Positions 11,712-61,807 are shown, counted from the stretch's first letter. The stretch is DNA of 64,000 nt from an uncultured Clostridia bacterium (GCA_964649495.1 CAZYPR010000003.1:17879-81878), one strand, 5' to 3'. Program-made: numbers and translations. The notes: generated by a model from the letters alone, not told the origin.

Positions 11712-11774
11712 AAGAATATGAAAACAATTAAGCTACGAGCTTTTTATTTTAACTTTTCAAAGGAGGATTTATAA

Positions 11775-26634: not shown

Positions 26635-26727
26635 TGGCGGAGAGGGTGGGATTCGAACCCACGCTCCGACTCATCGTCGGAGAATCGCTTAGCAGGCGAC
26701 CCTGTTCAACCACTCCAGCACCTCTCC
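26635..26727 (-). tRNA. tRNA-Ser (anticodon GCU), class II with a long variable arm
   Basis: The minus-strand sequence is GGAGAGG-TG-...-GTCGC-CTGCTAA-GCGAT-(21-nt variable arm)-GTGGG-TTCGAAT-CCCAC-CCTCTCC-GCCA. The acceptor stem is 7 bp, the T-loop is TTCGAAT, the anticodon loop CTGCTAA carries GCT, and the CCA is encoded. Confidence 0.85.
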
Positions 26728-44820: not shown

Positions 44821-45861
44821 ATGATAGGAATTTGTGGCTATGGTTCGTATCTTCCGAGATTGAGGATTAAATCTGAAACCATTGCTAAGCAATGGGGTAT
44901 GGATCCTGAATCTATTAAAAAAGGTTTGCTTCTCTACGAAAAGACTGTTCCAAATCATGACGAGGACACAATAACAATCTCTATTGAAGCAGCAAAGAAT
45001 GCTTTGAAGAGAGCGGGAATTTCTCCATCGGAAATTGGTGCAGTTTATGTAGGTTCAGAATCTCACCCTTATGTTGTAAAACCAACAGGAACTGTTGTTG
45101 CAGAAGCTCTCGGTATAACCCCTGATGTCCATATAGCGGATTTTGAATTTGCCTGTAAAGCTGGAACAGAAGCAATGTTTGTGGCATACTCTCAGGTTAA
45201 AGCTGGTGTTGTCAAATATGCCCTTGCTATTGGAGCTGACACATCTCAGGGAGCACCTGGAGATCCCCTTGAATATTCAGCCTCAGCGGGTGGAAGCGCT
45301 TTTATTTTTGGATCTGAAAGAATTGTTGCAGAAGTTATCGAAACTTATTCCTTCACAACAGATACTCCCGATTTCTGGAGAAGAGAGTATGAGTTCTATC
45401 CAAGACATGGAGGAAGATTCACCGGAGAGCAGGCGTATTTCAGGCACATAATATCTGCAGGAAAAGAAATAATGAAAAGAGCAGGACTAACTGCAAGGGA
45501 TATTGACTATGCGGTCTTCCATATGCCAAACGGAAAATTCCCTCAACAAGTAGCAAAAGCATTGGGTTTTGATCTAAAACAAATTGAACCAGGATGGATA
45601 GTTCCATGGATGGGTAACACCTATTCAGGCTCATCTCCAACAGGTCTTTCAGCAACTCTTGATATTGCAAAACCAGGGGATAAGATTATTATTGTATCTT
45701 TTGGTTCTGGAGCTGGTTCAGATGCTTTCATCTTCAAAGTTACGGAGAGAATAGAAGAGGTAAGGAATCTTGCTCCAAAAGTAAAGGATATGCTTGATGG
45801 AAAGAAGATATATGTGGATTATGGAAGTTATGCAAAAATAAGAGGAAAAATAATTGTTTAG
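44821..45861 (+). CDS. Hydroxymethylglutaryl-CoA synthase, archaeal/PksG-type
   Basis: It starts MIGICGYGSYLPRLRIKSETIAKQWGMDPESIKKGL, collinear with archaeal HMGCS. It has the active-site Cys context ADFEFACKAGTEAM and is 346 aa. Confidence 0.8.
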   Translation: MIGICGYGSYLPRLRIKSETIAKQWGMDPESIKKGLLLYEKTVPNHDEDTITISIEAAKNALKRAGISPSEIGAVYVGSESHPYVVKPTGTVVAEALGITPDVHIADFEFACKAGTEAMFVAYSQVKAGVVKYALAIGADTSQGAPGDPLEYSASAGGSAFIFGSERIVAEVIETYSFTTDTPDFWRREYEFYPRHGGRFTGEQAYFRHIISAGKEIMKRAGLTARDIDYAVFHMPNGKFPQQVAKALGFDLKQIEPGWIVPWMGNTYSGSSPTGLSATLDIAKPGDKIIIVSFGSGAGSDAFIFKVTERIEEVRNLAPKVKDMLDGKKIYVDYGSYAKIRGKIIV

Positions 45862-45870
45862 GAGGTAAAA

Positions 45871-47019
45871 ATGAGAGATGTTGCAATAATAGGGGCGGGA
45901 ATAACTAAATTTGGTGAGCACTGGAAAAAATCAATAAGGGACATTTTTGTTGAATCCGCTCTAATGGCAATTAAGGACGCTGGAGTGGATCACATTGATT
46001 CCATGTATGTCGGATGTATGTCAGGAGGCCTATTCGTTGCTCAGGAACATCTCGGAGCTTATCTTGCTGACTATCTTGGTCAAAGCTCAATTCCAGCTGT
46101 AAGGATTGAGTCTGCATGTGCATCAGGAGGCACTGCTTTGAGAATGGGTTTCATTGAAGTTGCATCAGGTTTATCAGATATAGTTCTTGTGGGAGGAGTA
46201 GAAAAGATGACAGATACGGATGATGTGACATTTGCACTTGCAACTGCAGCTGAACAGGAATATGAAGTATTCCATGGAATCACATTCCCTGGTTTATATG
46301 CTCTTATAGCCAACGCATACATGAAAAGATATGGGCTAACAAGGGAGCAACTTGCAATGGTGGCAGTAAAGAATCACAAACACGGTTCATTAAACCCCAA
46401 TGCCCAATTTCAATCAGAAATAACCATTGAAGCGGTTCTGAGCTCCACTCTTGTTGCTGATCCATTAAGATTAATGGATTGCTCTCCTGTCTCTGATGGT
46501 TCCGCATGTGTGATTCTTTGTCCTCTTGAATTGGCAAAAAAATTCACCGACACCCCTGTCAAAATAATAGGCTCAGGAATGGCAACTGATACTATTGCTT
46601 TACATTCAAGGAAGGATATAACAAGTCTTAAAGCTGTCTCCCTTTCTGCAGAAAAAGCTTACAAGATGGCGGGGATCAAACCAGAGGATGTGAATGTTGC
46701 AGAGGTTCATGATTGTTTCACAATAGCTGAAATTATAATAACTGAGGAACTGGGTTTCGCGGAGAGAGGGAAGGGAGGAGAACTTGTAGAGAAAGGTGAG
46801 ACATTCATTGGAGGTAGGATACCTGTGAATACCAGTGGTGGATTAAAGGCAAAGGGTCATCCAGTGGGTGCTACTGGAGTTGCACAAGCAGTGGAAATCT
46901 TTTACCAGCTCCAGGGAAGAGCAGAAAAAAGGCAGGTTAAGAATGCAAGAATAGGTTTAACCCAGAATATGGGAGGCTCTGGAGCCTCCTCAGTTGTTCA
47001 TATAATGGAGGTGGTATAA
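45871..47019 (+). CDS. Acetyl-CoA C-acetyltransferase (archaeal-type thiolase/SCP-x-like)
   Basis: It has [18 protein letters not shown], the Cys nucleophile context [13 protein letters not shown], and C-terminal GHPVGATG with an active-site Cys/His region. It is 382 aa. Confidence 0.8.
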
Positions 47020-47411
47020 TGTCAGTCCCAAAATACTGGAGAGAAATCCCTCAAAGGTATAGATTGGAGGCGGGGAAGTGCAAAAATTGTGGCTATATTG
47101 CCTTCCCTCCAAGACAGATCTGTCCTGAATGTAAAAAGAATGATTTTGAGAATATAAGACTTTCAGATACTGGTAAAATAATCTCCTACACAATAATAAG
47201 AGTTCCTCCCAAAAATTTCTCCTTCCAATCTCCTTATCCAGTTGCAATTATAGAGCTTGATGGTGGAGGGAGAATCACTGCTCAGATAACTGATGCAAGC
47301 CCTGAAGAAATTGAAATTGGTGCAAAAGTTAGGATTGTCTTGAGGAAAATTCAAGAAGAAGGGAAAGATGGAATCATATGCTATGGGTATAAAGCTACCC
47401 TTGAGAAATAG
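47019..47411 (+). CDS. DUF35 OB-fold/zinc-ribbon scaffold protein of the thiolase-HMGCS complex
   Basis: It has the [20 protein letters not shown] rubredoxin-like ribbon followed by an OB fold. It is 130 aa and translationally coupled to the thiolase (ATAATG overlap). Confidence 0.8.
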
Positions 47412-47413
47412 GA

Positions 47414-49021
47414 ATGTTTAGAATAGAAAGCAAGATAAATACATCCTCTTCTGAGTTCAAAGAGAACTTTGAGCACATGAAGAGGAGTGTGGAGGAGCTT
47501 AAAGAAAGACTTGAAGAGGTCAAGAAAGGGGGACCATCTGAAGCAGTGAAAAAACATAAAGAGAGGGGTAAGCTCACAGTAAGGGAAAGGCTTGCGCTGC
47601 TATTTGATCCAGGAACCCCATTCCTTGAACTTTCACCCCTTGCTGCCTATGGAATGTATAACAATGAAGCTCCCTGCGCTGGAATTGTGACTGGGATAGG
47701 TGTTGTCCACGGAAGAGAGGTTCTTGTTGTTGCTAATGATGCAACAGTTAAGGGAGGGACATATTTCCCTGAAACAATAAAGAAGCATGTCAGAGCTCAA
47801 GAAATAGCCATGGAGAATCGTCTCCCTTGCATATATCTTGTTGACTCGGGAGGAATCTTTCTTCCCCTTCAATCAGGAACATTCCCCGACAAGGAACATT
47901 TTGGAAGAATATTTTACAATCAAGCAAGAATGTCGGCAATGGGAATACCACAGATTTCAGTTGTGATGGGTTCATGCACTGCGGGAGGAGCATATGTTCC
48001 CGCAATGAGTGATGAGACGGTAATTGTGAGGCGTCAGGGAACAATATTCATTGGTGGACCTCCTCTTGTAAAGGCGGCCACAGGTGAGGAGGTGACTGCA
48101 GAAGAGTTGGGAGGGGCTGATGTGCATTGTAGAATTTCGGGTGTCTCGGATCATTATGCCCTAAATGATGAGCATGCCATAGAGATTACAAGGAACATCG
48201 TTGCAAATCTTCCAAAGAACAAGAAGTTTGAGCTTGATGTGGAAGATCCAAAAGAGCCTTATTACGATCCACAGGAAATTTATGGGATAGTTCCTAAAGA
48301 TCTGAGAAAACCCTTTGACATGAAGGAGATAATTGCAAGAATTGTAGATGGTAGCGAATTCCATGAGTTCAAAGAACTCTATGGTCCAACTCTTGTATGC
48401 GGTTTTGCCAGGATAATGGGTTATCCTGTGGGGATTGTTGCCAACAACGGGGTCCTTTTCTCAGAAAGTTCCCTTAAAGGTGCTCACTTTGTATCCATGT
48501 GCGCTGTCAGAAAAATTCCTCTTATATTCCTCCAAAATATTACTGGATTTATTGTTGGGAAACAGTATGAACATGGTGGAATCGCAAAGGATGGGGCAAA
48601 AATGGTTCATGCTGTTGCCAACGCAGATGTTCCCAAATTCACTGTAATAATCGGAGGCTCTTATGGAGCGGGTAATTATGCGATGGCGGGAAGAGCTTAC
48701 GATCCAAGGCTTCTCTGGATGTGGCCCACAGCAAGAATATGTGTAATGGGAGGGGAGCAGGCTGCGAACACCCTTCTTACTGTGAAACTTGAAGCCCTTG
48801 CAAGGGAAGGAAAAACCATGACAGAGGAGGAACAGGAGAAATTCAAAGAGCCAATCCTTAAAAAGTATGAAGAGGAATCTTCAGCCTATTATTCAACTGC
48901 ACGACTCTGGGACGATGGAATTTTAGATCCCCTTGATACAAGGGAAGCTCTCGCCTTGGGAATTGCTATGAGTTTAAACGCTCCAATCCCCGATCACAGA
49001 TTTGGTGTTTTCAGGATGTAG
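47414..49021 (+). CDS. Acyl-CoA carboxyltransferase beta subunit, methylcrotonyl-CoA carboxylase beta (MccB/LiuB)-like
   Basis: The N-terminal [28 protein letters not shown] and tandem carboxyltransferase N/C domains are collinear with MCCase beta. It is 535 aa. Confidence 0.8.
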
Positions 49022-49027
49022 AATTAA

Positions 49028-49813
49028 ATGAGCTACTCAACAATACTATTTTTAAAAGAAAAATTTATAGGGAAAATAATTCTCAATCGACCTGAGATCC
49101 ACAATGCCTTTAACGATTTAATGATTTCAGAATTGAACTTTGCTCTTGACCAAATTGAAAGGGATTCAGAAATAAGAGTAGTTGTTATAACAGGAGCGGG
49201 TGAGTCCTTTTGTGCAGGAGCAGATCTAAACTGGATGAAAAGAGTGAAAGATTGGAGTTATGAGAGAAATTATGAGGATGCTTTGATGGTTGCTGAACTT
49301 ATGGAGAGGATATACACATTTCCAAAACCTTTAATAACAAGAGTTAATGGAACAACAATTGGTGGAGGGACAGGGATTGTTGCAGCATCAGATATTTCAA
49401 TTGCATCAGAAAATGCTATTTTTGGCCTTGCTGAAGTTAAAATAGGACTCGTTCCCTCAGTAATTTCTCCATATCTCATAAAGAGATGCGGTGAAAGAGT
49501 TTGTAGAGAAATTTTTTTAACAGGGGAAAGGATCTCTGCAAGAAAAGCTCTTGAATTTGGGCTTGTCAACTATGTGGTTCCGAAAGAAGAACTGGACAAA
49601 AAAGTGGAGGAAATCGTGAAGATGCTTCTAAGTAGTGGTCCCAATGCAATGAAGATGTGCAAGGAGCTTATTAAGAGAGTTTCGGAAACTCCAATTTCTG
49701 AAGTTAAATCTTACACTGCTGATATAATTGCTAAGATCAGGATAAGTGAAGAAGGGCAAGAAGGAATCTCTTCATTCCTTGAAAAAAGGAAACCCAAGTG
49801 GGTGAAGGAATAA
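49028..49813 (+). CDS. Enoyl-CoA hydratase/isomerase (crotonase), methylglutaconyl-CoA hydratase-like
   Basis: It has the crotonase oxyanion-hole region VVVITGAGESFCAGADLNWM and catalytic Glu positions (GGGTGIVAASDISIASENAIFGLAEV). It is 261 aa. Confidence 0.8.
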   Translation: MSYSTILFLKEKFIGKIILNRPEIHNAFNDLMISELNFALDQIERDSEIRVVVITGAGESFCAGADLNWMKRVKDWSYERNYEDALMVAELMERIYTFPKPLITRVNGTTIGGGTGIVAASDISIASENAIFGLAEVKIGLVPSVISPYLIKRCGERVCREIFLTGERISARKALEFGLVNYVVPKEELDKKVEEIVKMLLSSGPNAMKMCKELIKRVSETPISEVKSYTADIIAKIRISEEGQEGISSFLEKRKPKWVKE

Positions 49814-49816
49814 GCT

Positions 49817-50761
49817 TTAGAAGTCCTGTTCCTCTCCGCAATAGGGGCATTTTTTAACAACATTAGATATCAATCTTTTACAGTTCCAGCACTTTTTTTC
49901 TCTTTTTATTTCTCTCATCTTTATCCTTTCTTTTATATCTCTGATAGAATCTGAATGGACATCCTTCCCAAGAAATCTTTCTATCTCTTCAATAATTTCT
50001 GAAGCACTCTGGTATCTTTCTTGAGGATTTGCCTTTAATGCTTTCATACATATGTTTGAAATTTCCCTTGGAACAGAAGGATTAGCCTTGTGGAGTGGAG
50101 TTATCTTTCCTTCCCTTGCAAGCTTTTCAATAACAAAGGGATTTGCATCAAGGATTGGTGGTGCTCCTGTCAGCATTTCGTATAGAATACATCCCAAAGA
50201 ATAAATGTCTGAGACAAAGGAGGATTTTCCCGCAAACTGTTCTGGTGCCATATAAGGGGGTGAACCAATCCTTGTTGTTGCATAAGGAACCCCTTCTATC
50301 CATGTAGATGTTCCGAAATCACCTATTTTTGCAATACCATCTTTAGTTATTAAAATATTTGAAGGACGAAGATCTCTGTGAATAATTTTATGTTCATGGG
50401 CATGCTTAACACCAAGACATATCTGTCTGAAATAATTTAAAGCGGTAGAAAGAGAAAGTTTACCTTCCCTTTCTATTATTCTATGAAGAGACTCGCCATC
50501 AACATACTCCATAACAATAAAAAAGTAAGGGTCTATTTTCTCTGCAGTGATAACCTGAACAATATTTGGATGGGTGAGGGCTGCTTGAACCTGTGGTTCC
50601 TTTAAAAGGTTCATCAAATCTGTAGATTGTCTATGAGGAACTTTTAAAGCAACTTTTTTCTTTAACCAGAGATCCTGGGCAAGATAAACAGTTCCAAATC
50701 CACCTGTTCCGAGGACCTCAAGGATTACATATTTTCCTAATCTTTGTCCCTTTAAAAACAA
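49817..50761 (-). CDS. Hanks-type Ser/Thr protein kinase with a C-terminal zinc ribbon
   Basis: It has GTGGFGTVYLA...ALK (VAIK-like), HRDLRPSNILI, DFGTS and SPPYMAPE motifs. The tail CWNCKRLISNVVKKCPYCGEEQDF is a CxxC...CxxC ribbon. Confidence 0.8.
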   Translation of the reverse strand: MFLKGQRLGKYVILEVLGTGGFGTVYLAQDLWLKKKVALKVPHRQSTDLMNLLKEPQVQAALTHPNIVQVITAEKIDPYFFIVMEYVDGESLHRIIEREGKLSLSTALNYFRQICLGVKHAHEHKIIHRDLRPSNILITKDGIAKIGDFGTSTWIEGVPYATTRIGSPPYMAPEQFAGKSSFVSDIYSLGCILYEMLTGAPPILDANPFVIEKLAREGKITPLHKANPSVPREISNICMKALKANPQERYQSASEIIEEIERFLGKDVHSDSIRDIKERIKMREIKREKKCWNCKRLISNVVKKCPYCGEEQDF

Positions 50762-51488: not shown

Positions 51489-52607
51489 TTAATGGTATAT
51501 ATTTTTAATTTTTGATTTTATTTCTTCATAGTGCCGGGAACTTTCGTCTCCTCTTAATAATGCAAGCTGTTGAAGGAGTTTCTTCTCTTCCTTTGTAAGA
51601 TTTGTTGGAGTCACAACCTTTACTTTGACAAATAGATCCCCCCTTCTTGCACTTCCGAGGATTCTCATCCCCTTACCTTTTAACCTGAAAACAGTTCCTG
51701 TTTGAGTTTCCTCAGGAATTTTCAAATGTTCATCACCATCAAGAGTTGGTATTTTCAGCTCTGCTCCCAAGGCAGCCTGGGTAAATGTTATAGGTATTTC
51801 CATATACAAATTATCCCCCCTTCTTTCAAAAATAGGATGAGGAGCTATTCTTACAACAACATAAAGATCTCCTCTCCTTTCTCCAAATTCTCCCATTTCA
51901 CCTTCTCCCTGAATTCTCAGTTTAGCACCAGAGTCAATTCCAGCAGGAATCTTGATTTTTAGTGTTCTCTTCTCCTTTTTCTTCCCTGTTCCCCTGCATG
52001 CTTTGCATGGATTCTTTGCAATTTCTCCAGTGCCATTGCACTGGGGACATGTTCTCGATATGGAGAAAAAGCCCTGCTGATACCTTACATGACCCGAGCC
52101 ACCACATGTTGGGCATACTTCTCTCCTTGTCCCTTTCTCAACCCCTTCACCACCACAGACTGAACAGACTTCATCCCTCAAGACATCTATTTCCTTTTCC
52201 ACTCCCATGAACGCATCCTCAAGGAGAATTTCTATTTCAAGCCATATATCAGCTCCTGGCTTTGGTCTCCTTTTACCTCTCCTTGGTGAAAAGAAATCGA
52301 ATCCAAAAAAATTACCAAGTATATCTTCAAATTCTTGAAAAATTGAAGATGAGAATATATCAAAATCTGTAAATTGCTCACCCCTTAAACCAGAATGTCC
52401 GTAAGTGTCATAAATTCTTCTTTTTTCGGGATCGCCAAGAACAGAGTATGCTTCTGCTGCTTCTTTGAATTTTTCCTCTGCCTCTTTATTTCCAGGGTTT
52501 CTGTCAGGGTGATACTTTAATGCAAGATTTCTGTATGCCTTTTTTATCTCTTCTTGAGTTGCATTCCTTGGAACTCCTAAAATCTCGTAATAATCCTTCT
52601 TTTTCAT
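51489..52607 (-). CDS. dnaJ: Molecular chaperone DnaJ
   Basis: It has the J-domain ([33 protein letters not shown]), a G/F region and four CxxCxGxG zinc-finger repeats. Confidence 0.9.
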
Positions 52608-52609
52608 AA

Positions 52610-54415
52610 TTAGAGCTTATTGGAAATAATTTTTGTTAGTTTTTCCTTAACCTCATTCAAGTCTGCCTGAAATTTCCTCATCTCATTGATATCATTTGTA
52701 TTTATTGCATTTTCAGCTCTTGAAATTAAAAGCCAGAGTTCTTCAATGTTAATATCCCTGAGCATATACGATGCTTTATTTAAAGACTCTTTTATTCCCC
52801 ATATTATTGCATCCAGTTCATCCCTGAGATGTTTCATTTCCATTTTTCTTCTGTCCTCTTCCCTGTATTTTTCCGCTTCTTCGATCATTCTCTCTATTTC
52901 CTGAGGTGTGAGTCCAGATGATGGTTCCACTACTATCTGTTGGGCTTGTCCAGTTCCCTTGTCAACTGCAGATACCTTGACTATTCCATTCGAGTCAATC
53001 TCAAAGGTCACATCTATCTGGGGAATCCCCTTTGGAGCGGGGAAAATATCTGTTAAATAGAAATAGCCGAGAGAACGGTTGGCAGACGCTATCTCCCTTT
53101 CTCCCTGTAGGACATGAATTTTAACAGTAGTCTGATTATCCTCCACTGTTGTGAATGTCATTGTTTTTCTAACGGGTATAGTTGTATTTCTTTCAATAAT
53201 TTTTACAAACTGGTCTCCCTTGGTTTCAACTCCAAGAGAGAGGGGGGTGACATCCAGAAGGACTATGTCATAAATTTCTCCACTCAAGATACTTCCTTGA
53301 ACCGAAGCCCCAATAGATACAACTTCATCGGGATTGATTGAAATATTGGGCTCCTTTCCGAAATATTCTCCCACAAGTTTTATTATCTTAGGCATCCTTG
53401 TTTGTCCACCAACGAGAATTACATCATCAATATCCAGTTTGGAAATTTTTGCATCTTTGATTGCTTTATCCAGTAAAGGAGGAATCCTTTCAAGGAGAGC
53501 CGAGACAGCATTCTCGAGTTCATCTCTTGTTATAACCCTTGTAAGATGCAATGGTTTTGAGTCAAGCTCTGCAATAAAAGGAAGGTTTATCTCTGCAGAA
53601 GCACTGTAGGATAGCTCTATTTTTGCCTTTTCACAGGCTTCTTTCAATCTCTGAAGCGATTCTCTCCTTTCTCTCAAATCAATATTGTAATTATTCTTGA
53701 ATTCATTGCAGATTAAATCTATTAAAATTTCGTCTATATCGTCACCTCCAAGAAATGAATCTCCAGCAGTGGAGAGGACATGGAAAACTCCCTTTCTTAT
53801 CTCAAGAATTGAAATATCAAATGTTCCACCACCGAGATCAAAAACCGCTATGAGCCCTTCCTTTTTCTTATGGAAACCGTAGGCGAGAGCAGCTGCAGTA
53901 GGCTCATTTATGATTCTAACAACCTCGAGACCCGCTATTGTTCCCGCATCCTTTGTTGCCTGCCTCTGGGCATCATCAAAATTTGCTGGAACAGTAATAA
54001 CAGCTTTTTTCACTTTCTCTCCAATGTAAGCTTCAGCACAATCTTTTAAATAGGAGAGAATCATAGCGGAGATTTCCTGTGGAGAGAACACCTTTTCTCC
54101 AACAAGTATTCTTACATCACCACTGGAAGACTCGGTTAATTTATAGCTAATTCTTCTCTGTAATTCTTGAACCTCAGAAGAATTGAATTTTCTTCCCATC
54201 AATCTCTTCACTGAGAAAACTGTATTTTCAGCATTTATAATTGCCTGCCTTTTTGCAGAGATTCCGATTAGCCTTTCCCCAGAAGGAGTAAAAGCAATTA
54301 TAGAAGGTGTTGTTCTTGAGCCTTCAAAATTTGGAATAACATTTACCTTTCCACTTTCAATAAACGATATGCAGGAATTTGTTGTTCCTAAATCAATCCC
54401 CACTATCTTTTCCAT
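52610..54415 (-). CDS. dnaK: Molecular chaperone DnaK (Hsp70)
   Basis: It has [26 protein letters not shown] and [13 protein letters not shown]. The likely start is the ATG at 54415 ([10 protein letters not shown]). The ORF track start at 54463 is a TTG that extends into grpE. Confidence 0.9.
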
Positions 54416-54998
54416 TCCCTCTCTCCCTTGATAAATTCTGGCTCTTCTCCACAGGGACTGCAACCCTTACTAAGGAAGGTCTCAAAAGCTTCTCATTTAG
54501 AAGATAACCTTTCTGAAATTCCTCAATTACTATGGGTCTATCCACTTCCTCTGAATCAACCTTGAAAATAGCCTCATGATAAAAAGGATTGAACTCTGCA
54601 CCTACTGCCTCTATAGGCTTCAAGCCAAACCTAAAAAGGATTTCTTTAAAATTCTTATATATTAGTTCTATCCCCTTTCTGAATGCTTCATTTTGTTCTG
54701 TCGGATTGGAAATAGCCCTCTCAAAGTCATCAATAATAGGAAGAAGTGCAAGGATAACCTCTGATAGAACTACATTGTAGAACTCTCTCTTTTCTTTTTC
54801 GGTTCTTTTGCGTAGATTATCTATATCAGCGATAGCCCTTAAATATCTTTTGTAAATTTCATCTTTTTCTTTTTTCAGTTCTTCAATACTATTTTTTAAT
54901 AGTTCTATACTTTCCTCCTCAAATAATTCCTTCTTTTCTTTCGTTTCAATTTGTTCGTTTTTTATCTCTTCTGACTTATCTTCTCTTTCTTCATCCAT
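54393..54998 (-). CDS. grpE: Nucleotide exchange factor GrpE
   Basis: It has a long coiled-coil N-terminus and the C-terminal GrpE core (...YKRYLRAIADIDNLRKR...VLPVIDDF...). It is 201 aa. Confidence 0.85.
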   Translation of the reverse strand: MDEEREDKSEEIKNEQIETKEKKELFEEESIELLKNSIEELKKEKDEIYKRYLRAIADIDNLRKRTEKEKREFYNVVLSEVILALLPIIDDFERAISNPTEQNEAFRKGIELIYKNFKEILFRFGLKPIEAVGAEFNPFYHEAIFKVDSEEVDRPIVIEEFQKGYLLNEKLLRPSLVRVAVPVEKSQNLSRERGNGKDSGD

Positions 54999-55013
54999 TT
55001 AAAACCTCCATAA

Positions 55014-56024
55014 TTAAGAGAAAACCTGAGAAAGAAATTTTGCAGTTCCATCTACAAGGGGTATGGTCAGTTTGTAAAACATTCTCCTTGAGCCTATTAT
55101 TCCCACTGACCCTGCAATGTTCTCTCCTGTTTTCAACCCTGAGATAACGAAGGAGCATGTTGGTAAAGGGAAAGCATCTATTTCAGAACCAAATATAACC
55201 TTTGTTCCTTCACTGCATACCTGCTGTAGAAGCTTTAATAAAGCAGTTTTTTCTTCAAGGCTTTTCAATAGATTTTTCAAAGCATCTATATCAGGAAATT
55301 CAGGTTTTCCTAAAAGGTTTTCATGTCCTTGCATATGAACATCTATTTTTTCTTCCCTTTCCTCCTCAATTTTATGGAAGAAATTAATGAATTTTTCCAG
55401 CAATCTTGCAAAATTTTTCCTTTCAGTGTTAATCTCTCTCAGCAAGGTCATTTTTACTGTATTGAGGGTTTGACCCGCAAATTTTTCCTGAATATAAGAG
55501 GAGAGTTTTAAGAGCTCCTCTTGAGTGAACCCCTCAGTATTTTTGAAAACTTTTGTTACTACCAGGTTTGAGGAACTCAGAAGAGTGAGAAGAATGGCGG
55601 AATTAGATATTTTTTCAAAATTTATATAATTGAATGTAATGAACTCAATTGGAGGAACCACAATAAAGCTCATGCAATCAGAAGTATCAGATAAGAATTT
55701 TGAGGTTCTCTCAAGTAAAGCATCAATCTCAAAAGGTGTATTGCCAATAAGCATTTCTCCAATTTCGTGGGGTTCCCTCATCTCCTCAAGGATTGATTCT
55801 GCATAAAATTTCAATCCTTTATCCGTAGGGATTCTTCCTGAAGCTACATGAGGCTGGAAGAGAAAATCTTCCTTTTCAAGCTTTGCCATTATATTTCTAA
55901 TTGTTGCTGGGCTTAGAGTGTAGCCAAGCTCACGGGCTATAAATTGAGATGAGACAGGAGCCCCTTCCTTTAAATAGGACTCAACTATCAATCTCAAAAT
56001 TGTCTCTACTCTTCTTTCCATCAT
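55014..56024 (-). CDS. hrcA: Heat-inducible transcription repressor HrcA
   Basis: It has an N-terminal winged-HTH (SSQFIARELGYTLSPATIRNIMAKLE) and a C-terminal HrcA domain. It is the first gene of the hrcA-grpE-dnaK-dnaJ operon. Confidence 0.85.
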   Translation of the reverse strand: MMERRVETILRLIVESYLKEGAPVSSQFIARELGYTLSPATIRNIMAKLEKEDFLFQPHVASGRIPTDKGLKFYAESILEEMREPHEIGEMLIGNTPFEIDALLERTSKFLSDTSDCMSFIVVPPIEFITFNYINFEKISNSAILLTLLSSSNLVVTKVFKNTEGFTQEELLKLSSYIQEKFAGQTLNTVKMTLLREINTERKNFARLLEKFINFFHKIEEEREEKIDVHMQGHENLLGKPEFPDIDALKNLLKSLEEKTALLKLLQQVCSEGTKVIFGSEIDAFPLPTCSFVISGLKTGENIAGSVGIIGSRRMFYKLTIPLVDGTAKFLSQVFS

Positions 56025-56098: not shown

Positions 56099-56127
56099 TT
56101 GACACCAGAATTTTTCAGAGGTATATT
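56099..56127 (+). promoter_or_regulatory. Sigma70-type promoter (TTGACA-17-TATATT) for the nuoE-like operon
   Basis: TTGACA sits at 56099-56104, followed by a 17-nt spacer and TATATT at 56122-56127. It is about 150 nt upstream of the ATG at 56282 and divergent from hrcA. Confidence 0.35.
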
Positions 56128-56281
56128 TAAGAATGACTAATATAATTTTTTCTGGAGGACTAATAAATGAAATATTTTCGGAATTATTCTATTATATCTT
56201 TACACTTAAAAGCCCTCTTTAGAAGAAATCCTTTAAGAAAAATTCTATAAAAATTAAAAATCATTTTTGAGGTGGTGTATT

Positions 56282-56830
56282 ATGGATAAAACAAAATCTC
56301 AAAAAGGAACAAAAAAATTATCCAAAAAAAGGACTGATAAGGATTCTGTTCCTGAATTTGTGGATGAATGTATTAAAAGGCAGGGAGGTCTCCTCATTCC
56401 TGTGCTTCAGGAGATCCAGGCACATTACCGCTATCTTCCAGAACAGGCTCTTAGGGAGGTTTCAAAGAAACTTGGGATTCCTTTGAGGGATGTTTACGGA
56501 GTAGCAACATTCTATAGAGCATTTGCTCTTACTCCCAGGGGTGAGCACGAGGTTACAATCTGTCTTGGAACTGCTTGCCATGTCAGAGGCGGAGCCAATA
56601 TAGTTAATACCCTCTCAACAGACCTTGGAATCTCTCCCGGACAGACAACCCCTGATGGAAAATTCACCCTTGAAACAGTTAACTGTCTTGGTTGCTGTGC
56701 AATCGGACCAATTGTAGTTGTTGACGGCGAATATCATGGGGAGATGAACTCCCAGAAAGCAAGAAAGTTGATTGAGAAATTAAAAAAGGAGGAGAAAAAT
56801 GCCAAAGCTAAAGTCTCCAAAAGAGCTTGA
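56282..56830 (+). CDS. NuoE/HoxE/HydC-like [2Fe-2S] thioredoxin-fold subunit of an NADH-dependent flavin oxidoreductase module
   Basis: It has the Cys ligands ...ICLGTACHVRGG...VNCLGCCAIGPIVVVDGEYHG. The likely start is the ATG at 56282 with a gaggtggtg RBS. Confidence 0.8.
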   Translation: MDKTKSQKGTKKLSKKRTDKDSVPEFVDECIKRQGGLLIPVLQEIQAHYRYLPEQALREVSKKLGIPLRDVYGVATFYRAFALTPRGEHEVTICLGTACHVRGGANIVNTLSTDLGISPGQTTPDGKFTLETVNCLGCCAIGPIVVVDGEYHGEMNSQKARKLIEKLKKEEKNAKAKVSKRA

Positions 56831-58676
56831 AAATTTAAGGAAGAAAATTCACGAGAAGAAGGATAGCACAAAAAAGATAATTTCAATTTCATCTGGGACA
56901 TGCGGAAGAGCAAGTGGCTCCCTTAAGATTGTTGATGCTTTTAAATCAGCTGTAAAAGGTCACGAGGAAAAGATTCAGCTCAAGGAGACAGGTTGCCATG
57001 GATTCTGCAGTGCAGAACCAAATGTTATAATCTTCCCTGAAGAGCTCTTTTACAGGAATCTTAAGCCTGAAGATGCTGAAAAAATTGTTTCCTCCATTCT
57101 AAAGGGGGAGATACTATATGAACTTACATATCAGGATAACGGGACAAGATTTCCCTATTTAAAGGAGATCCCTTTTTACAAAGACCAGAAAAGAGTTCTC
57201 CTCAACGACAATCCCCTTGTGGATCCAACAAGTATTGAAGATTACATTTCCCTTGGAGGTTATTCCTCTCTTTCCAAAGCTCTTTCTATGGAGCCAGATA
57301 AAATTATAGAAGAGATCAAAAAGTCGGGTCTCAGAGGCAGAGGTGGAGCAGGATTCCCAACAGGAAGGAAATGGGAAATTGTAAGGGAACAGAATAGCGA
57401 TGTTAAGTTCATAATCTGTAACGCTGACGAAGGAGATCCTGGCGCTTACATGGACAGAAGCCTTCTTGAAGGTAATCCTCACCTTGTAATTGAGGGAATG
57501 ATAATTGGTGGATATGCCATTGGTGCCACCCAGGGATGGATTTATGTAAGGGATGAGTATCCATTGGCGGTTCAGAATGTGACAAAGGCATTAGAGGATG
57601 CAAGAAAGTTAGGGTTTCTTGGAAAGAATATTCTTGGTTCATCCTTTAGTTTCGATATAAAGATTGCAAGAGGTGCGGGAGCCTTTGTTTGTGGTGAAGA
57701 AACAGCTCTGATTGCATCCATTGAAGGAAAGAGAGGAATTCCTCGACAGCGTCCTCCTTATCCCGCTCATAAGGGACTTTTTGGAAAACCTACCAACATT
57801 AACAATGTTGAGACATGGGGAAATGTAACAAGGATAATTGATAAGGGAGCTGATTGGTACTCAAGTATTGGGACTCAAGGCTCAAAAGGAACAAAGATAT
57901 TCTCTCTTGTTGGAAAAGTCAAAAACACAGGTCTTGTGGAAGTTCCCATGGGTATGAGCATTAATGAACTTGTTTTTAAAGTTGGAGGAGGTGCTCAGAA
58001 TGGTAAGAAAATAAAGGCTGTTCAGATTGGTGGACCTTCGGGAGGATGTATACCCTCAGAGCTCTTCCATTTACCTATTGATTACGAATCTCTTACCTCT
58101 GCAGGAGCAATAATGGGTTCAGGCGGAATGATTGTAATGGATGAGGACACCTGTATGGTAGATGTTGCAAGATACTTCACAAACTTCCTCCAGGATGAAT
58201 CCTGCGGAAAGTGTGTCTCCTGCAGGGAGGGAACCCAGAGAATGTATGAGATTTTAAAAGAGATTACAGAAGGAAGAGGAACTGAAGAACATCTTACTCT
58301 TCTTGAAGAGCTTGGAACAATTGTTAAGGATGCTTCCATGTGCGGACTTGGGCAGACCGCTCCTAATCCAGTTCTTTCTACCCTTAGGTATTTCAGGCAT
58401 GAGTATGAAGCTCACATTAAAGAAAAAAGATGTCCCGCCTTAGTATGCAAGGAACTAGTTCATTATTATATCCTTCCTGACAAATGTGTTGGTTGTCTTC
58501 TCTGTCTAAAATCCTGCCCTTCAGGAGCTATCTCTGGCGAGTTGAAGAAGGTTCATGTAATTGATGATTATAAATGTATTAAATGTGGGATCTGTATGGA
58601 GGTGTGCCCTGAGAAAGTAAGGGCTGTGATTAAGTACTCAGGTGAAAGACCTGAAAAGGAGGAGAGAAATGGCTAA
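56799..58676 (+). CDS. NuoF/HydB-like NADH-binding flavoprotein subunit (FMN, N-terminal [2Fe-2S] thioredoxin-like domain, C-terminal 2x[4Fe-4S])
   Basis: It has GRGGAGFPTGRKWE (NADH/FMN site), the SLBB and 4Fe-4S region ...ESCGKCVSCREGT..., and the C-terminal ferredoxin CVGCLLCLKSCP...CIKCGICMEVCP. The N-terminal extension carries SSGTCGRASGS...GCHGFCS. This is the architecture of HydB/HndC-type subunits. Confidence 0.85.
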   Translation: MPKLKSPKELENLRKKIHEKKDSTKKIISISSGTCGRASGSLKIVDAFKSAVKGHEEKIQLKETGCHGFCSAEPNVIIFPEELFYRNLKPEDAEKIVSSILKGEILYELTYQDNGTRFPYLKEIPFYKDQKRVLLNDNPLVDPTSIEDYISLGGYSSLSKALSMEPDKIIEEIKKSGLRGRGGAGFPTGRKWEIVREQNSDVKFIICNADEGDPGAYMDRSLLEGNPHLVIEGMIIGGYAIGATQGWIYVRDEYPLAVQNVTKALEDARKLGFLGKNILGSSFSFDIKIARGAGAFVCGEETALIASIEGKRGIPRQRPPYPAHKGLFGKPTNINNVETWGNVTRIIDKGADWYSSIGTQGSKGTKIFSLVGKVKNTGLVEVPMGMSINELVFKVGGGAQNGKKIKAVQIGGPSGGCIPSELFHLPIDYESLTSAGAIMGSGGMIVMDEDTCMVDVARYFTNFLQDESCGKCVSCREGTQRMYEILKEITEGRGTEEHLTLLEELGTIVKDASMCGLGQTAPNPVLSTLRYFRHEYEAHIKEKRCPALVCKELVHYYILPDKCVGCLLCLKSCPSGAISGELKKVHVIDDYKCIKCGICMEVCPEKVRAVIKYSGERPEKEERNG

Positions 58677-59358
58677 GATAAGGATTGATGGTATTGAGTT
58701 TGATGCTCCTGAGAACTGGACAATCCTTGAAACAGCAAAATTTCTCGGGCTTGAAATACCGACCCTCTGCTATTATGAGGGTTTAACTCCATGGGGTGGA
58801 TGCAGAATCTGTCTTGTTGAGATTGGCAAAGATAATAATACAAAGCTTGTTACATCCTGCACATATCCTGTGGAAGAAGGATTAAATGTAAAAACTTCCA
58901 CTCCAAGGGTATTGAAGGCAAGAAAAATGATGTTAGAACTAATGATTGCCCAGTGCCCGACATCAAAGGTTCTTCAGGATATGGCAGCAAAGATAGGAGT
59001 GGATAAAGTTAGATTCAAGCCAAAATGGGAAACATGCATTTACTGTGGGCTATGTGTAAGAATGTGTGAAGAGCAGATGATGGCTTCAGCTATTGGATTT
59101 GTCAACAGAGGGAATAAACTCAAAATTACAACTCCCTTTGATATTTCCTCTGAAGATTGTAGAAGATGCGGAGGATGTATTTACATTTGCCCTGCCTGCA
59201 CTCTCAGATGCGAAGGTGGAAAGCCCCAATCTGTGATCTGCGCAAGATGCGAGAACTCTCTTCAACCAACCTGTGTTGAAGTATACGGCAATTTCACATG
59301 CTGGATGGGTTTAAAAGGAGAATGTGGAACTTGCGTCCCAATAGAAAAGACCAAATGA
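58669..59358 (+). CDS. NuoG/HydA N-terminal-like Fe-S protein (2Fe-2S plus multiple 4Fe-4S) that lacks any H-cluster or molybdopterin catalytic domain
   Basis: It has the 2Fe-2S ferredoxin start MAKIRIDGIEFDAPENWTILETAKFLGLEIPTLCYYEG...CRICLVEI, followed by CPTSKV, CIYCGLCVRMCEE, CRRCGGCIYICPAC and a Cys-rich tail. It is only 229 aa. The ATG at 58669 overlaps the previous stop. Confidence 0.7.
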   Translation: MAKIRIDGIEFDAPENWTILETAKFLGLEIPTLCYYEGLTPWGGCRICLVEIGKDNNTKLVTSCTYPVEEGLNVKTSTPRVLKARKMMLELMIAQCPTSKVLQDMAAKIGVDKVRFKPKWETCIYCGLCVRMCEEQMMASAIGFVNRGNKLKITTPFDISSEDCRRCGGCIYICPACTLRCEGGKPQSVICARCENSLQPTCVEVYGNFTCWMGLKGECGTCVPIEKTK

Positions 59359-59415
59359 AAGCAATTCAATTTTTGAGAATTCTTTTAAATTTTCCATGAA
59401 AGGAGGTTTTATAAA

Positions 59416-60993
59416 ATGAGCTTTACAAAAATAAACGCAACAGCGGCAACATTAACAAAGAACAGGACCGAGGGTTCTGTAGTCCCAATAAGTGGAATGT
59501 GTGTAACATGTGTGGATGGGTGTATAGGAATGTGTGAAATAGGAAAATCAGCCTACCGTGGAGCAGAGGCAATCTATCCTCAGCCCTTCGGTATTATTAC
59601 CTCTGCGGGAGAGAAAGATTATCCCATTGACCTTTCCCATTTTTCCATAATGGGCTCTGCTACAGGTGCGTATGGAATTGAGGCTGATTCAGACAAGGCA
59701 ATCTTCCCAAATGTAAATTTGGAGAGAAGGATTGGAAGAGACAAGGGGATTAAGTTGAGACTTCCAATTGTTCTTGGAGGACTTGGCTCCACAGCCATTG
59801 CAAAGAATAACTGGGAAGGAATAGCGGGTGGAGCAGCAATAACAGGGATAATATGCACAGTGGGTGAGAATATCTGCGGAATGGATCCCCAGTCGGAAAT
59901 TGTTAATGGTAAAGTTAAACGCTCCCCTGAAATGGAAAGAAGAATAAGGCTTTACAGGGAGTGGCAGCAGGACGGTTATGGAACAATTGCAGTTCAGGCT
60001 AATGTGGAGGATACAAGACTTGGTGTTCATGAGTATGTTATTGAAAAACTTGGTGTTGAGGCAGTTGAGCTAAAATGGGGACAAGGAGCAAAGGATATTG
60101 GTGGAGAGGTAAAGATTAAAGATCTGAAGATGGCACAAATGTTGAAGGATAGAGGATATGTTGTGCTTCCTGATCCCTATGACCCAGAGGTTATAAAATC
60201 CTTTGAGAGAAAGGTTTTCCACGAGTTTGAAAGACATTCAAGGGTTGGAATGGTTGATCTTGAATCTTTCTGCAAGAGAGTGGAGGAGCTCAGAAAGTTC
60301 GGAGCAAAATATGTATTTTTGAAGACAGGGGCTTACAGACCTCAGGATCTTGCAAGAGCTGTAAAATATGCTTCAGAAGCCCAAATTGATCTTTTAACAG
60401 TTGACGGAGCGGGAGGCGGAACTGGAATGAGCCCATGGAGAATGATGAATGAGTGGGGGGTTCCACCTATAGAGCTCTGGTCCCTTCTCTATCAGTATCT
60501 TGACAAACTTGCTAAAAAAGGAAAATATATACCAGATGTGGCTGTAGCCAGTGGAATAATTCTTGAAGACCAGATTTTTAAAGCCCTTGCAATTGGTGCT
60601 CCTTACTTCAAATTGGTTTGCATGGCAAGAGGTCCTGTTGCAGCTGCAATGGTTGGAAAGAATATAATTAGAATGATGGAGGAAGGTCAGACTCCTGTTT
60701 ATGTAACTCGATTTGGAGTTTCAAAGGAAGAGATTTTTGTTACCGCTCCTGAACTTAAGAGAAGATATGGTGATAGATTCGAGCAGATACCAGCTGGAGC
60801 AATGGGACTTTACACCTACATGAAAAGAATTGAACAGGGGCTTAAACAACTAATGGCAGGAAGCAGAAAATTCTCCCTTGATTATATAACAAGAGATGAT
60901 ATTGCAGCAATAACAAAGGAAGCAGCTGGGATTAGCGGAATTAAATATGTAATGGAACTGGACAAAGAAGAAGCAGAAAAGATTCTTGAATAG
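59416..60993 (+). CDS. FMN-dependent glutamate-synthase-domain-2-like oxidoreductase (GltB central-domain family) with an N-terminal Cys cluster
   Basis: It has LLTVDGAGGGTGMSPWRMMNEWGVP, the GltS FMN-domain DGxxGGTG signature, and an N-terminal CVTCVDGCIGMCEIGK (Cx2Cx3Cx3C). It is 525 aa with a strong aaaggagg RBS. Confidence 0.7.
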   Translation: MSFTKINATAATLTKNRTEGSVVPISGMCVTCVDGCIGMCEIGKSAYRGAEAIYPQPFGIITSAGEKDYPIDLSHFSIMGSATGAYGIEADSDKAIFPNVNLERRIGRDKGIKLRLPIVLGGLGSTAIAKNNWEGIAGGAAITGIICTVGENICGMDPQSEIVNGKVKRSPEMERRIRLYREWQQDGYGTIAVQANVEDTRLGVHEYVIEKLGVEAVELKWGQGAKDIGGEVKIKDLKMAQMLKDRGYVVLPDPYDPEVIKSFERKVFHEFERHSRVGMVDLESFCKRVEELRKFGAKYVFLKTGAYRPQDLARAVKYASEAQIDLLTVDGAGGGTGMSPWRMMNEWGVPPIELWSLLYQYLDKLAKKGKYIPDVAVASGIILEDQIFKALAIGAPYFKLVCMARGPVAAAMVGKNIIRMMEEGQTPVYVTRFGVSKEEIFVTAPELKRRYGDRFEQIPAGAMGLYTYMKRIEQGLKQLMAGSRKFSLDYITRDDIAAITKEAAGISGIKYVMELDKEEAEKILE

Positions 60994-61010
60994 TTTTAAT
61001 TAGATATTAA

Positions 61011-61076
61011 GAGAGGGGAAATAGCTAATAGCTGTGAGTTTTTAGCTGTTAGTAAATTCCCCTCTCATTTTTATCC
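61011..61076. terminator. Bidirectional intrinsic terminator between convergent genes
   Basis: A perfect 10-bp inverted repeat, GAGAGGGGAA (61011-61020) with TTCCCCTCTC (61067-61076), encloses a nested 9-bp hairpin (CTAATAGCT...AGCTGTTAG). T-runs follow on both strands. Confidence 0.5.
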
Positions 61077-61120: not shown

Positions 61121-61807
61121 TCATTGCTGAGAAAATGAGCTTTTTGCCTTTGCAATCAATTCCCTCAATTCCCTTGCAGATTCTTCTGGGTCAGGAGAGC
61201 TAACAATTGCAGAGACCACTGCAACGCCATCAGCACCACTTTTTATAACATCAATAACATTTTCCCTGTTTATTCCTCCAATTCCAATAACAGGAACTCT
61301 TACAGATTCTTTTATTCTCCTTATTCCATCAAGCCCAAGGGGTGATCCTGCATCAGGTTTGGTTGGAGTTGAAAAGACAGGACTCACAGCAATGTAATCC
61401 GCTCCCTTTTCAGATTTCTCAACTGCCTCAAGGACAGATCCTGCAGATGCTCCAATTATAAATTTCTTCCCCAATATTCTTCTTGCAATCTCCACAGGCA
61501 TGTCTTCATTTCCAAGATGAACTCCATCAGCATTAACAGCAAGTGCAACATCAACCCTGTCGTTAATTATAAGGGGTATATTCTTTCCCTCAATAATTTT
61601 CTTTACCTCTAATGCCTCTTCAATAAACTCTTTTGTCGATAAACTCTTCTCCCTCAACTGAATAATGGTAACCCCCCCTTCCACAGCCTTTTTTATCATT
61701 TGGAAAAATGGTAGATTTGAAAGCCTTCTATCTGTTACAAGATAAAGATCCCAAATTATTTTCCTTCTCATTCTAAAATTAAATCTACTTTTTCTCCAGA
61801 GATTCAA
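61121..61807 (-). CDS. thiE: Thiamine-phosphate synthase
   Basis: It has ...LYLVTDRRL..., the TMP-TENI fold, and VIGIGGINRENVIDVIKSGADGVAVVSAI at the C-terminus. The true start is likely at an internal Met, because the N-terminal extension overlaps the upstream TPR gene. Confidence 0.8.
   Translation of the reverse strand: MNLWRKSRFNFRMRRKIIWDLYLVTDRRLSNLPFFQMIKKAVEGGVTIIQLREKSLSTKEFIEEALEVKKIIEGKNIPLIINDRVDVALAVNADGVHLGNEDMPVEIARRILGKKFIIGASAGSVLEAVEKSEKGADYIAVSPVFSTPTKPDAGSPLGLDGIRRIKESVRVPVIGIGGINRENVIDVIKSGADGVAVVSAIVSSPDPEESARELRELIAKAKSSFSQQ

Follow-up and report, generated by a model that had tools for sequence, protein, structure and literature searches.

What reaction is served by an electron-transfer module of the NuoE, NuoF and NuoG type when the gene that follows it encodes neither a hydrogenase nor a formate dehydrogenase catalytic subunit, but a flavoprotein resembling glutamate synthase? 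This question is raised by a locus of an uncultured Clostridia bacterium (GCA_964649495.1, CAZYPR010000003.1:17879-81878; the whole stretch of 64,000 nucleotides (nt) that was analyzed is called the window, and positions are counted from its first letter). Four co-directional open reading frames (ORFs) on the plus strand constitute one operon (56099-61074): a nuoE-like bfuC gene for a thioredoxin-like [2Fe-2S] protein (E, 56282-56830, 182 amino acids (aa)), a HydB-type nuoF-like bfuB gene (F, 56799-58676, 625 aa), a bfuA gene resembling the N-terminal part of nuoG (G, 58669-59358, 229 aa), and a gene for a 525-aa flavin mononucleotide (FMN) TIM-barrel protein of the Glu_synthase (PF01645) superfamily, here named X (59416-60993). 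We consider it very likely that these four genes encode a Bfu-family complex that includes X. As to its third reaction, the chances are in our estimate even that the complex interconverts 2-oxoglutarate + NH3 and glutamate and couples this to NAD(H) and ferredoxin.

Among electron-bifurcating enzymes, the Bfu family is both the most abundant and the least understood, and 18 of the 57 clades of Schut et al. (PMC9304861) have no assigned function. Protein E matches 2Fe-2S_thioredx (PF01257, 165 bits) in Pfam, and its cysteines 94, 99, 135 and 139, corresponding to the single [2Fe-2S] cluster (C1) of BfuC, are 100% conserved in 29 homologs. Its top eight matches in the PDB are all BfuC subunits of Bfu enzymes (from 7t2r_C with 145 bits to 7q4v_C with 122 bits), and complex I NuoE scores at most 101 bits. 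Protein F is built, from its N terminus, of a [2Fe-2S] domain (PF01257, residues 20-99), an FMN/NADH site (Complex1_51K, 161 bits), an SLBB domain, an N3-type [4Fe-4S] cluster (NADH_4Fe-4S, 117 bits), a CPxxxC site and a C-terminal 2x[4Fe-4S] region (two Fer4 domains, 556-606). It aligns end to end with NiFe-HydB (7t2r_B, 787 bits), HydB (8a6t_B, 764), NfnB (9n5u_B, 742), WorB (9mqx_B, 703) and 7p5h_B (678), compared with at most 409 bits for non-bifurcating NuoF and FdsB. All cysteine motifs of F (N-terminal [2Fe-2S], N3-type, CPxxxC and two C-terminal CxxCxxCxxxCP) align with 7t2r_B, 8a6t_B and 9n5u_B, and the Bfu-type motif DEGDPGA(F/Y)MDR is present as DEGDPGAYMDR. Thus F holds both the B1 set of BfuB (the NuoF-type FMN/NAD(H) site plus the N3-type [4Fe-4S]) and the extra clusters, namely the N-terminal [2Fe-2S], the CPxxxC B2/Zn site and the C-terminal B3/B4 pair; previous work showed that clusters B2-B5 are lost in non-bifurcating relatives (PMC9304861).

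Protein G matches Fer2_4 and Fer4_7 and carries the Fe-S wire of a BfuA, with ligands for one [2Fe-2S] (A1; C34/45/48/64) and two [4Fe-4S] clusters (A2 and A4; C123/126/129/133 and C164/167/170/174). These twelve cysteines are 100% conserved in 53 homologs, and the His-ligated A3 cluster is absent, as in Type 2 Bfu enzymes. Eight further cysteines in the C-terminal tail (177, 181, 191, 194, 202, 211, 219 and 222; 94-100% conserved, 53 homologs) would be enough ligands for one or two additional metal centres. The best PDB match of G is WorA (9mqx_A, 247 aa, 124 bits), and G is assigned as a short WorA-like BfuA. Taken together, E-F-G is a Bfu core, not a fragment of complex I; members of this family carry out a tightly coupled reaction of three substrates (NAD(H), ferredoxin and a third substrate). 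In a neighbour-joining tree of the BfuB core, the X-linked copies group apart from three solved BfuBs; the bootstrap of this grouping is only 52/100, so monophyly of the X-linked BfuBs is not claimed.

A first-pass annotation of this DNA had described E as a NuoE-like [2Fe-2S] protein, F as a HydB-type NuoF with an extra N-terminal [2Fe-2S] domain and a C-terminal 2x[4Fe-4S] region, G as a 229-aa NuoG/HydA N-terminal Fe-S fragment lacking a catalytic domain, and X as a GltB-like FMN protein with its own Cx2Cx3Cx3C cluster. Pfam profiles confirmed every domain listed there (NuoE, NuoF-SLBB, Fer2/Fer4 and Glu_synthase), and the fragment is now refined to a short BfuA. The annotation had also named findings that would speak against it: that the NuoF-like protein lacks the bifurcation-type clusters on close alignment, that the GltB-like clade has a standalone function, or that the NuoEFG-like genes elsewhere go with a hydrogenase or formate dehydrogenase subunit and the present adjacency is not conserved. 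None of these was borne out. All of the clusters are present, the adjacency is conserved, and no standalone function was found in the family libraries or the searched literature.

The association of the four genes extends far beyond this genome. In a scan with one genome per species, relatives of X were found in at least 594 species-representative genomes, and the best 80 of these relatives (67-79% identical to X; L001-L080) were taken as loci for comparison. The bacterial hosts comprise Aminicenantes, Zixibacteria, Bacteroidota, Ignavibacteria/Chlorobi, Clostridia, Desulfobacterota, Chloroflexi, Planctomycetota, Omnitrophota, Elusimicrobiota, KSB1, Acetothermia, Aerophobetes, Coatesbacteria and Actinomycetota, and the archaeal hosts Asgard, Methanophagales (ANME-1), Methanoperedens, Altiarchaeales and Thermoplasmatota. 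Upstream DNA of at least 3.2 kb is available for 66 of the loci, and in 64 of these, from more than 25 bacterial and archaeal phyla, F followed by G lies directly upstream of X; 59 have E as well. One further locus, L040, has G slightly farther from X, and L050 has G-X and no E-F upstream. Because the same order recurs in 64/66 related loci, the arrangement is far beyond chance, and the predicted adjacency of the NuoEFG-like genes to the GltB-like gene is borne out in both Bacteria and Archaea.

X is the most conserved subunit, with a median identity of 71%; the medians of F, G and E are 60%, 57% and 54%. X is 92% identical to a protein of a metagenome-assembled genome (MAG). A 92%-identical relative is encoded with the same four genes amid different flanking genes, indicating that the operon behaves as a self-contained unit. 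The exact sequence of X was not on record in a sequence look-up, and the best protein matches are from Candidatus Aminicenantes. In a representative library, 1106 of 1.84 billion sequences, many of them fragments, match X at E <= 1e-3, and this family is distinct from canonical GltB. The E-F-G-X operon is thus conserved and apparently undescribed: no description of a BfuABC-GltB-like enzyme was found in the searched full-text literature including key Bfu papers, the coverage of which is incomplete, so that this is absence of evidence only. One supplementary file of Schut et al. 2022 (PMC9304861) names neither glutamate nor Aminicenantes. Comparison of the 80 loci with 59416-60993 also shows an identity of 67-79% for X across the two domains, Bacteria and Archaea, and lower conservation of the accompanying E, F and G, implying inter-domain horizontal transfer of the operon and an unusually strong constraint on X.

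What, then, is X? Its sole Pfam family is Glu_synthase (PF01645, 53.8 bits against a cut-off of 20.4), a partial match with its best stretch at residues 280-400. Its motifs include an N-terminal C29x2C32x3C36x3C40, a loop of the glutamate synthase (GltS) type, 'ELKWGQGAKDIGGE' (218-231), and 'VDGAGGGTGMSPW' (329-341). Invariant in 74 homologs are C29, C32, C36, C40, K220, K226, R273, H274, R276 and K303, and the Cys4 motif is nearly invariant in relatives down to about 30% identity, except for one sequence without this segment. In a pairwise alignment, 'VELKWGQGAKDIGGE' (217-231) of X pairs with 'IQIKVAQGAKPGEGGQ' of Escherichia coli GltB, with a one-residue deletion in the loop, and a relative of X fused to an FrhB module has the intermediate loop 'GQGAKPGMGGE'. 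The segment 'VDGAGGGTGMSPW' pairs with 'GYDGGTGASP' of E. coli GltB in hhalign. Both synthase-domain motifs of GltS, 'QGAK' and 'GGTGxSP', are therefore common to X and E. coli GltB. The correspondence of QGAK, a motif that holds Gln969 and the catalytic Lys972 in Synechocystis ferredoxin-dependent GltS, rests on the pairwise alignment and direct reading of the motif, because hhalign covered only the FMN-phosphate region. These features assign X as a remote member of the Glu_synthase superfamily and probably as the substrate-converting subunit, the role for which it had been proposed at first: its adjacency to E-F-G is conserved, and no hydrogenase or formate dehydrogenase catalytic gene is present in the module. 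X is not filed as a canonical glutamine-dependent glutamate synthase (GOGAT), as it lacks the [3Fe-4S] motif and the amidotransferase and GXGXG domains.

The gene families most often found around the operon in the 80 loci bear on its substrate. Genes for glutamate dehydrogenase (GDH) were detected 18 times in 14 loci of at least eight phyla, at varied positions; an Asgard MAG (Promethearchaeota, L021, 1921-12328) has E-F(long)-G-X together with three GDH paralogs on the same strand, one upstream and two downstream. Glutamine synthetase (GS) is adjacent in nine loci, upstream in Aminicenantes and downstream in Thermoplasmatota. A histidine kinase with a sigma54 NtrC-type activator lies directly upstream in nine loci, Lrp/AsnC regulators are found in four and the nitrogen repressor NrpR in two. 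At least one of GDH, GS, NtrC and NrpR occurs in 30 of the 80 loci, and this neighbourhood favours 2-oxoglutarate/glutamate over an enoate. A relaxed search, run without a shuffle control, gave sigma54-like -24/-12 elements before the operon in 4 of 8 NtrC loci; a strict search for the sigma54 motif upstream of the operons found nothing. No amidotransferase, GXGXG, hydrogenase, formate dehydrogenase or pterin gene is among the recurrent neighbours. Since no amidotransferase was seen in the 80 loci, ammonia is a likelier nitrogen donor than glutamine.

In the mechanism that we propose, the four proteins would make up one soluble flavin/iron-sulfur complex. E and F would form the conserved BfuBC core, with NAD(H) reacting at the FMN of F and the C-terminal 2x[4Fe-4S] of F serving as the arm that faces ferredoxin. 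G would be the wire, leading from its [2Fe-2S] through two successive [4Fe-4S] clusters to one or two extra Cys-ligated centres of the C-terminal tail. We infer that X docks on G and would receive single electrons through its N-terminal Cys4 centre, which would stand in for the [3Fe-4S] cluster of canonical GltS, and pass them to its FMN. There, 2-iminoglutarate formed from 2-oxoglutarate and free ammonia would be reduced to L-glutamate, or the reverse, as at the synthase site of GltS; free ammonia is assumed because no amidotransferase is present. Overall, the complex would be an NAD(H)/ferredoxin-linked glutamate synthase without amidotransferase, under nitrogen control. Judged from motifs and neighbours, glutamate/2-oxoglutarate has in our view an equal chance of being or not being the substrate pair. 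The further proposal of a new glutamate synthase class, amidotransferase-free and powered through BfuABC by NADH and ferredoxin (with NAD(P)H replacing ferredoxin in fused relatives), is tentative, its chances falling somewhat short of even.

Several observations weigh against glutamate synthesis by this complex. X has no NCBIfam match in a profile search and no significant sequence match to solved structures including GltS, as the PDB search returned de novo TIM barrels and noise and provided no template-based residue mapping. When the X family (A1, A2) was compared with E. coli GltB by hhalign, only the FMN-phosphate region aligned (70-87% probability), and the Pfam match likewise lies mainly over this region. 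In fold searches, the nearest solved folds were alpha-hydroxy-acid oxidases, and GltS was not recovered. The Cx5Cx4C motif of the GltS [3Fe-4S] cluster is not in X (C402 occurs in 5% of homologs, and the only conserved cysteines are 29, 32, 36 and 40), amidotransferase and GXGXG domains are absent from its 525 aa according to Pfam, and the counterpart of GltS Arg992 (presumed Synechocystis numbering) is uncertain. Fifty of the 80 loci have no nitrogen gene within reach, and the window operon itself is flanked by heat-shock and thiamine genes unrelated to nitrogen. To our knowledge, a physiological ammonia-dependent GltS has not been established, and GDH, present in many host genomes, already catalyzes the same net reaction. 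Finally, the 2-oxoglutarate/glutamate couple (about -0.12 to -0.14 V) lies above NAD+/NADH and far above the third substrates of characterized Bfu enzymes (roughly -0.4 V), so the coupling mode would be unlike all known cases.

Because the couple lies above NAD+/NADH, three modes of the proposed glutamate-linked complex are conceivable. NADH and reduced ferredoxin could together yield glutamate, a strongly driven assimilation under nitrogen limitation (mode a); two NADH could yield glutamate and reduced ferredoxin (mode b); or, as the reverse of the latter, reduced ferredoxin could help the oxidation of glutamate in protein-degrading anaerobes (mode c). The regulators and the neighbouring GS genes point to assimilation; the GDH genes nearby and the way of life of many hosts leave room for mode c. 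A futile cycle of GDH and the X complex acting as a transhydrogenase was rejected on thermodynamic grounds, as its net conversion of NADH to reduced ferredoxin would have no driving force.

The alternative that survives best, though we regard it as unlikely, is that the same Bfu-type complex is formed and X acts on something else, such as another 2-oxo acid or imine, an N-alkyl-glutamate-type compound, a 2-hydroxy acid (lactate or 2-hydroxyglutarate) or an activated C=C. The sequence of X has diverged too far from canonical GltS to allow a substrate to be carried over. In addition, Gln978 of GltS is not conserved, and Arg992 is uncertain. For the 2-hydroxy acids, confurcating lactate dehydrogenases provide a precedent. 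Stand-alone PF01645 proteins with non-GltS roles are also known, for example a subunit of N-methylglutamate synthase (PMC6237917), but the MgsA/MgsB-type partner subunits are absent here. Against a hydroxy acid, X is only 11-17% identical to FMN alpha-hydroxy-acid oxidases and dehydrogenases (lactate oxidase, glycolate oxidase, mandelate dehydrogenase and flavocytochrome b2) and lacks their catalytic His-x-x-Arg after the sixth barrel strand, where 'DGAGGGTGMSPW', with the GltS-type 'DGAGGGTG', stands instead. Nor does it match FMN_dh (PF01070) in Pfam at E <= 0.01, Glu_synthase being the sole family matched. Since their catalytic motif is absent from X, the fold matches to hydroxy-acid oxidases were not taken as functional evidence. 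Furthermore, the recurrent neighbours are GDH, GS, NtrC-type and NrpR genes, and none is a lactate, glycolate or acyl-CoA gene.

A rather improbable alternative is that the enzyme does not bifurcate, electrons passing to X from NADH (or from ferredoxin only) and the extra Bfu clusters being inherited baggage or an alternative entry port. The likely couple of X lies well above NAD+/NADH, so ferredoxin would not be needed energetically in the reductive direction. In addition, F is of a long form (~1030-1090 aa) in 42 of 67 loci, with the C-terminal 2x[4Fe-4S] replaced by a GltD/NfnB-like NAD(P)H/FAD module (Fer4_20 + Pyr_redox_2), so the family can do without the ferredoxin arm. The F of the window is of the short, ferredoxin-type form, and short and long forms interleave in the tree. 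In the short form, however, selection has preserved the DEGDPGA(F/Y)MDR motif and every ligand of the Bfu-specific clusters, unlike the non-bifurcating relatives that lost clusters B2-B5 (PMC9304861).

It is likewise rather improbable that the operon belongs to a true glutamine-dependent GOGAT, with X as the synthase, the Bfu module as the reductase, and the glutaminase (GltB domain 1) and GXGXG parts supplied as subunits by genes at other sites in the genome, on the model of split archaeal-type GltS. Direct adjacency of GS in nine loci is what a GS-GOGAT pair would predict, and split GltB systems exist, such as the gogat cluster of C. thermocellum (PMC9888227). Yet split GltS genes are normally clustered, and no amidotransferase or GXGXG gene is among the recurrent neighbours of the 80 loci; the four-gene unit moves as a self-contained block, and tblastn of the 64-kb window, in which GltD, GDH, GS, NtrC and NrpR were the only queries, found no related genes. 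Chance adjacency, by which the NuoEFG-like genes would belong to a hydrogenase or formate dehydrogenase encoded at another site and X would work alone and unrelated to them, is close to refuted: HydBC-like modules are often annotated as hydrogenase subunits and L050 has G-X without E-F upstream, but the order is kept in 64/66 loci of two domains of life, E/F and F/G overlap between one promoter-like site and one terminator, G has no catalytic domain, and the loci contain no hydrogenase or formate dehydrogenase gene.

How the predicted complex relates to known systems can be read from its parts. In the scheme of Schut et al. (PMC9304861), the operon is classified as a Type 2-like Bfu: the BfuBC core is invariant, BfuA is short, and an extra subunit would handle the third substrate. 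Its closest architecture is that of WorABCSL, a tungsten aldehyde oxidoreductase-Bfu (PDB 9mqx; PMC12318220) that counts as Type 2 in the same scheme, and every feature of Bfu membership that could be examined in the sequences is present. WorA has no His-ligated A3 cluster, and the Cys4 zinc finger and adaptor helix at its end recruit a separate catalytic module (PMC12318220). Similarly, the operon encodes BfuBC with all clusters and a BfuA of ~230-250 aa without A3 or a large C-terminal domain but with a Cys-rich tail, and the catalytic site would lie on a separate, docked subunit. Where WorABCSL has the tungstopterin WorL and polyferredoxin WorS as its catalytic module, the operon has one FMN TIM-barrel protein that bears a Cys4 motif. 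G has eight extra cysteines in place of the four-Cys zinc finger of WorA, and the redox potential of the probable third substrate lies much above that of aldehydes.

E and F also resemble HydC/HydB and NfnC/NfnB of the electron-bifurcating hydrogenases HydABC and NiFe-HydABCSL and of the transhydrogenase NfnABC (StnABC), being ~60% identical over the full length with every cofactor motif, whereas no H-cluster, NiFe or pterin module is present here. The GltD-like NAD(P)H/FAD domain in 42 related loci is reminiscent of NfnA/StnC; unlike NfnABC, it is fused to the C terminus of BfuB, replacing the ferredoxin arm, and not to BfuA, and the window operon has no GltD domain. With the synthase domain of GltB (PF01645), X shares an FMN TIM barrel scoring above threshold, the 'QGAK' loop, the 'GGTGxSP' FMN-phosphate motif, a conserved Lys ending the 'LKTG' strand, presumably an Fe-S centre feeding FMN by one-electron steps, an FrhB-fused relative, and the association with GltD-like, GS and GDH proteins. 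It differs from GltB in lacking the amidotransferase, central and GXGXG domains, in having the N-terminal Cx2Cx3Cx3C instead of the Cx5Cx4C of the [3Fe-4S] cluster, in giving no sequence match to solved GltS, in forming a small compact family, and in having BfuABC as the reductant module in place of GltD or free ferredoxin.

The variants of the module fit this comparison with glutamate synthases. A GltD-type subunit is the reductant of GltB in NADPH-dependent GltS (PMC8097209), and the relative of X fused to the F420-binding FrhB module (36% identical to X) resembles the putative F420-dependent glutamate synthases of methanogens (PMC3448663). The X-type subunit is thus combined with more than one kind of reductant module, a trait of glutamate synthases. 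Four distant lineages have an additional X-like gene beside the operon, whose product is 50-61% identical to X, matches PF01645 and shares the Cys4 motif: Desulfatiglandales (L002, 997-2643, minus strand), Altiarchaeales (L032, 9987-11576, plus strand), Methanoperedens (L035, 3015-4604, minus strand) and Dethiobacter (L067, the operon locus of Dethiobacter alkaliphilus; 2129-3712, plus strand, followed by an IclR regulator). These paralogs could be alternative catalytic subunits. A small Cys-rich protein (~90-135 aa) without Pfam match is encoded between the NtrC-type regulator and E in L007 (2726-3010), L062 (2682-3029) and five other loci. The E protein of many loci has a zinc-ribbon region added at its C terminus, which brings it to 280-340 aa (L007, 3011-3901); in some loci this region is a separate gene. 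Divergent BfuB/NuoF-like paralogs not linked to X lie a few kb downstream in two Firmicutes loci (L055, 15771-17578, 44% core identity to the window F; L067, 13019-15121, 20%), so those genomes carry several Bfu-type modules.

In the window, a sigma-70-like promoter candidate (TTGACA-17-TATATT, 11/12 consensus matches) precedes the operon at 56099-56127 on the plus strand. The single promoter assumed in the first-pass annotation is thus present as a site, but as a consensus match only: a scan of the sequence gave 15 such sites against 11.5 expected, and this site is not significant alone. The leader of ~150 nt after it matches no Rfam family, no riboswitch was found by Rfam search in the leader or the whole window, and no sigma54 element was read upstream of this copy. 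The start of E is placed at ATG 56282, since the ribosome-binding site GAGGTGG sits 7 nt upstream, and the upstream alternative first proposed, TTG 56267, is less likely. Of the translational coupling suggested for all four genes, the co-direction stands throughout and the overlaps hold for E/F (32 nt) and F/G (8 nt, with AAGGAGG before the ATG of G at 58669). Overlap is limited to these first three genes because X begins 57 nt after G and carries its own ribosome-binding site, AAAGGAGG. The operon ends in an intrinsic terminator (61011-61074, plus strand) with a 10-bp GC-rich outer stem and an 11-bp inner stem followed by AUUUUUAU; the hairpin folds at -33.6 kcal/mol (z = -8.15), and 0 of 200 shuffles fold equally well. 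On the minus strand, hrcA-grpE-dnaK-dnaJ (51489-56024) lies divergent upstream and thiE (61121-61807) convergent downstream. No GDH, GS, NtrC or NrpR gene was found in the 64-kb window by tblastn with GltD, GDH, GS, NtrC and NrpR queries.

If the proposed glutamate reaction is true, the Bfu family would gain a new third reaction, and because one small flavoprotein carries it out, it lends itself to experiment. The complex would be the first in the family whose third couple probably lies above NAD+/NADH and the first with a high-potential organic third substrate, which bears on the disputed mechanism of bifurcation. Strict anaerobes from over 25 phyla, among them Asgard, ANME-1, Methanoperedens and Thermoplasmatota archaea, would be able to convert ammonia and glutamate into each other without ATP, by a route that redox carriers tune. 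This would offer a candidate explanation for the way in which many uncultured anaerobes of sediments and the subsurface (for example Aminicenantes, Zixibacteria, Thermoplasmatota and Asgard archaea) form or degrade glutamate. The presence of X in at least 594 genomes and its ~70% identity across Bacteria and Archaea indicate a strongly constrained, horizontally shared core function.

Elsewhere in the window, a 2-oxoacid:ferredoxin oxidoreductase operon was identified on the plus strand (12639-16856), consisting of a gamma subunit (12639-13190) and alpha/beta subunits (14827-15981 and 15960-16856). Inserted between gamma and alpha/beta is a gene for a GltD/NfnB-like FAD and 2x[4Fe-4S] protein (13181-14830, 549 aa; Fer4_20 + Pyr_redox_2), which shares 35% identity with the GltD-like domain that BfuB carries as a fusion in related loci. 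This operon may encode a 2-oxoacid oxidoreductase linked to NAD(P)H, which could be a source or a sink of 2-oxoglutarate and ferredoxin; fumarate hydratase and aldehyde dehydrogenase genes lie upstream of it (10287-12629). A tRNA on the minus strand (26638-26727) is the only gathering-level Rfam match in the 64 kb. On the minus strand at 49817-50761, a Ser/Thr-kinase-like ORF with a CxxC...CxxC zinc-ribbon tail was read from translations beside rsmE-like, dnaJ, dnaK, grpE and hrcA genes. Finally, a plus-strand cluster at 44821-49813 encodes ACP_syn_III_C/HMG-CoA-synthase-like, thiolase-like, carboxyl transferase and enoyl-CoA hydratase proteins, which may belong to a branched-chain acyl-CoA or mevalonate-related pathway.

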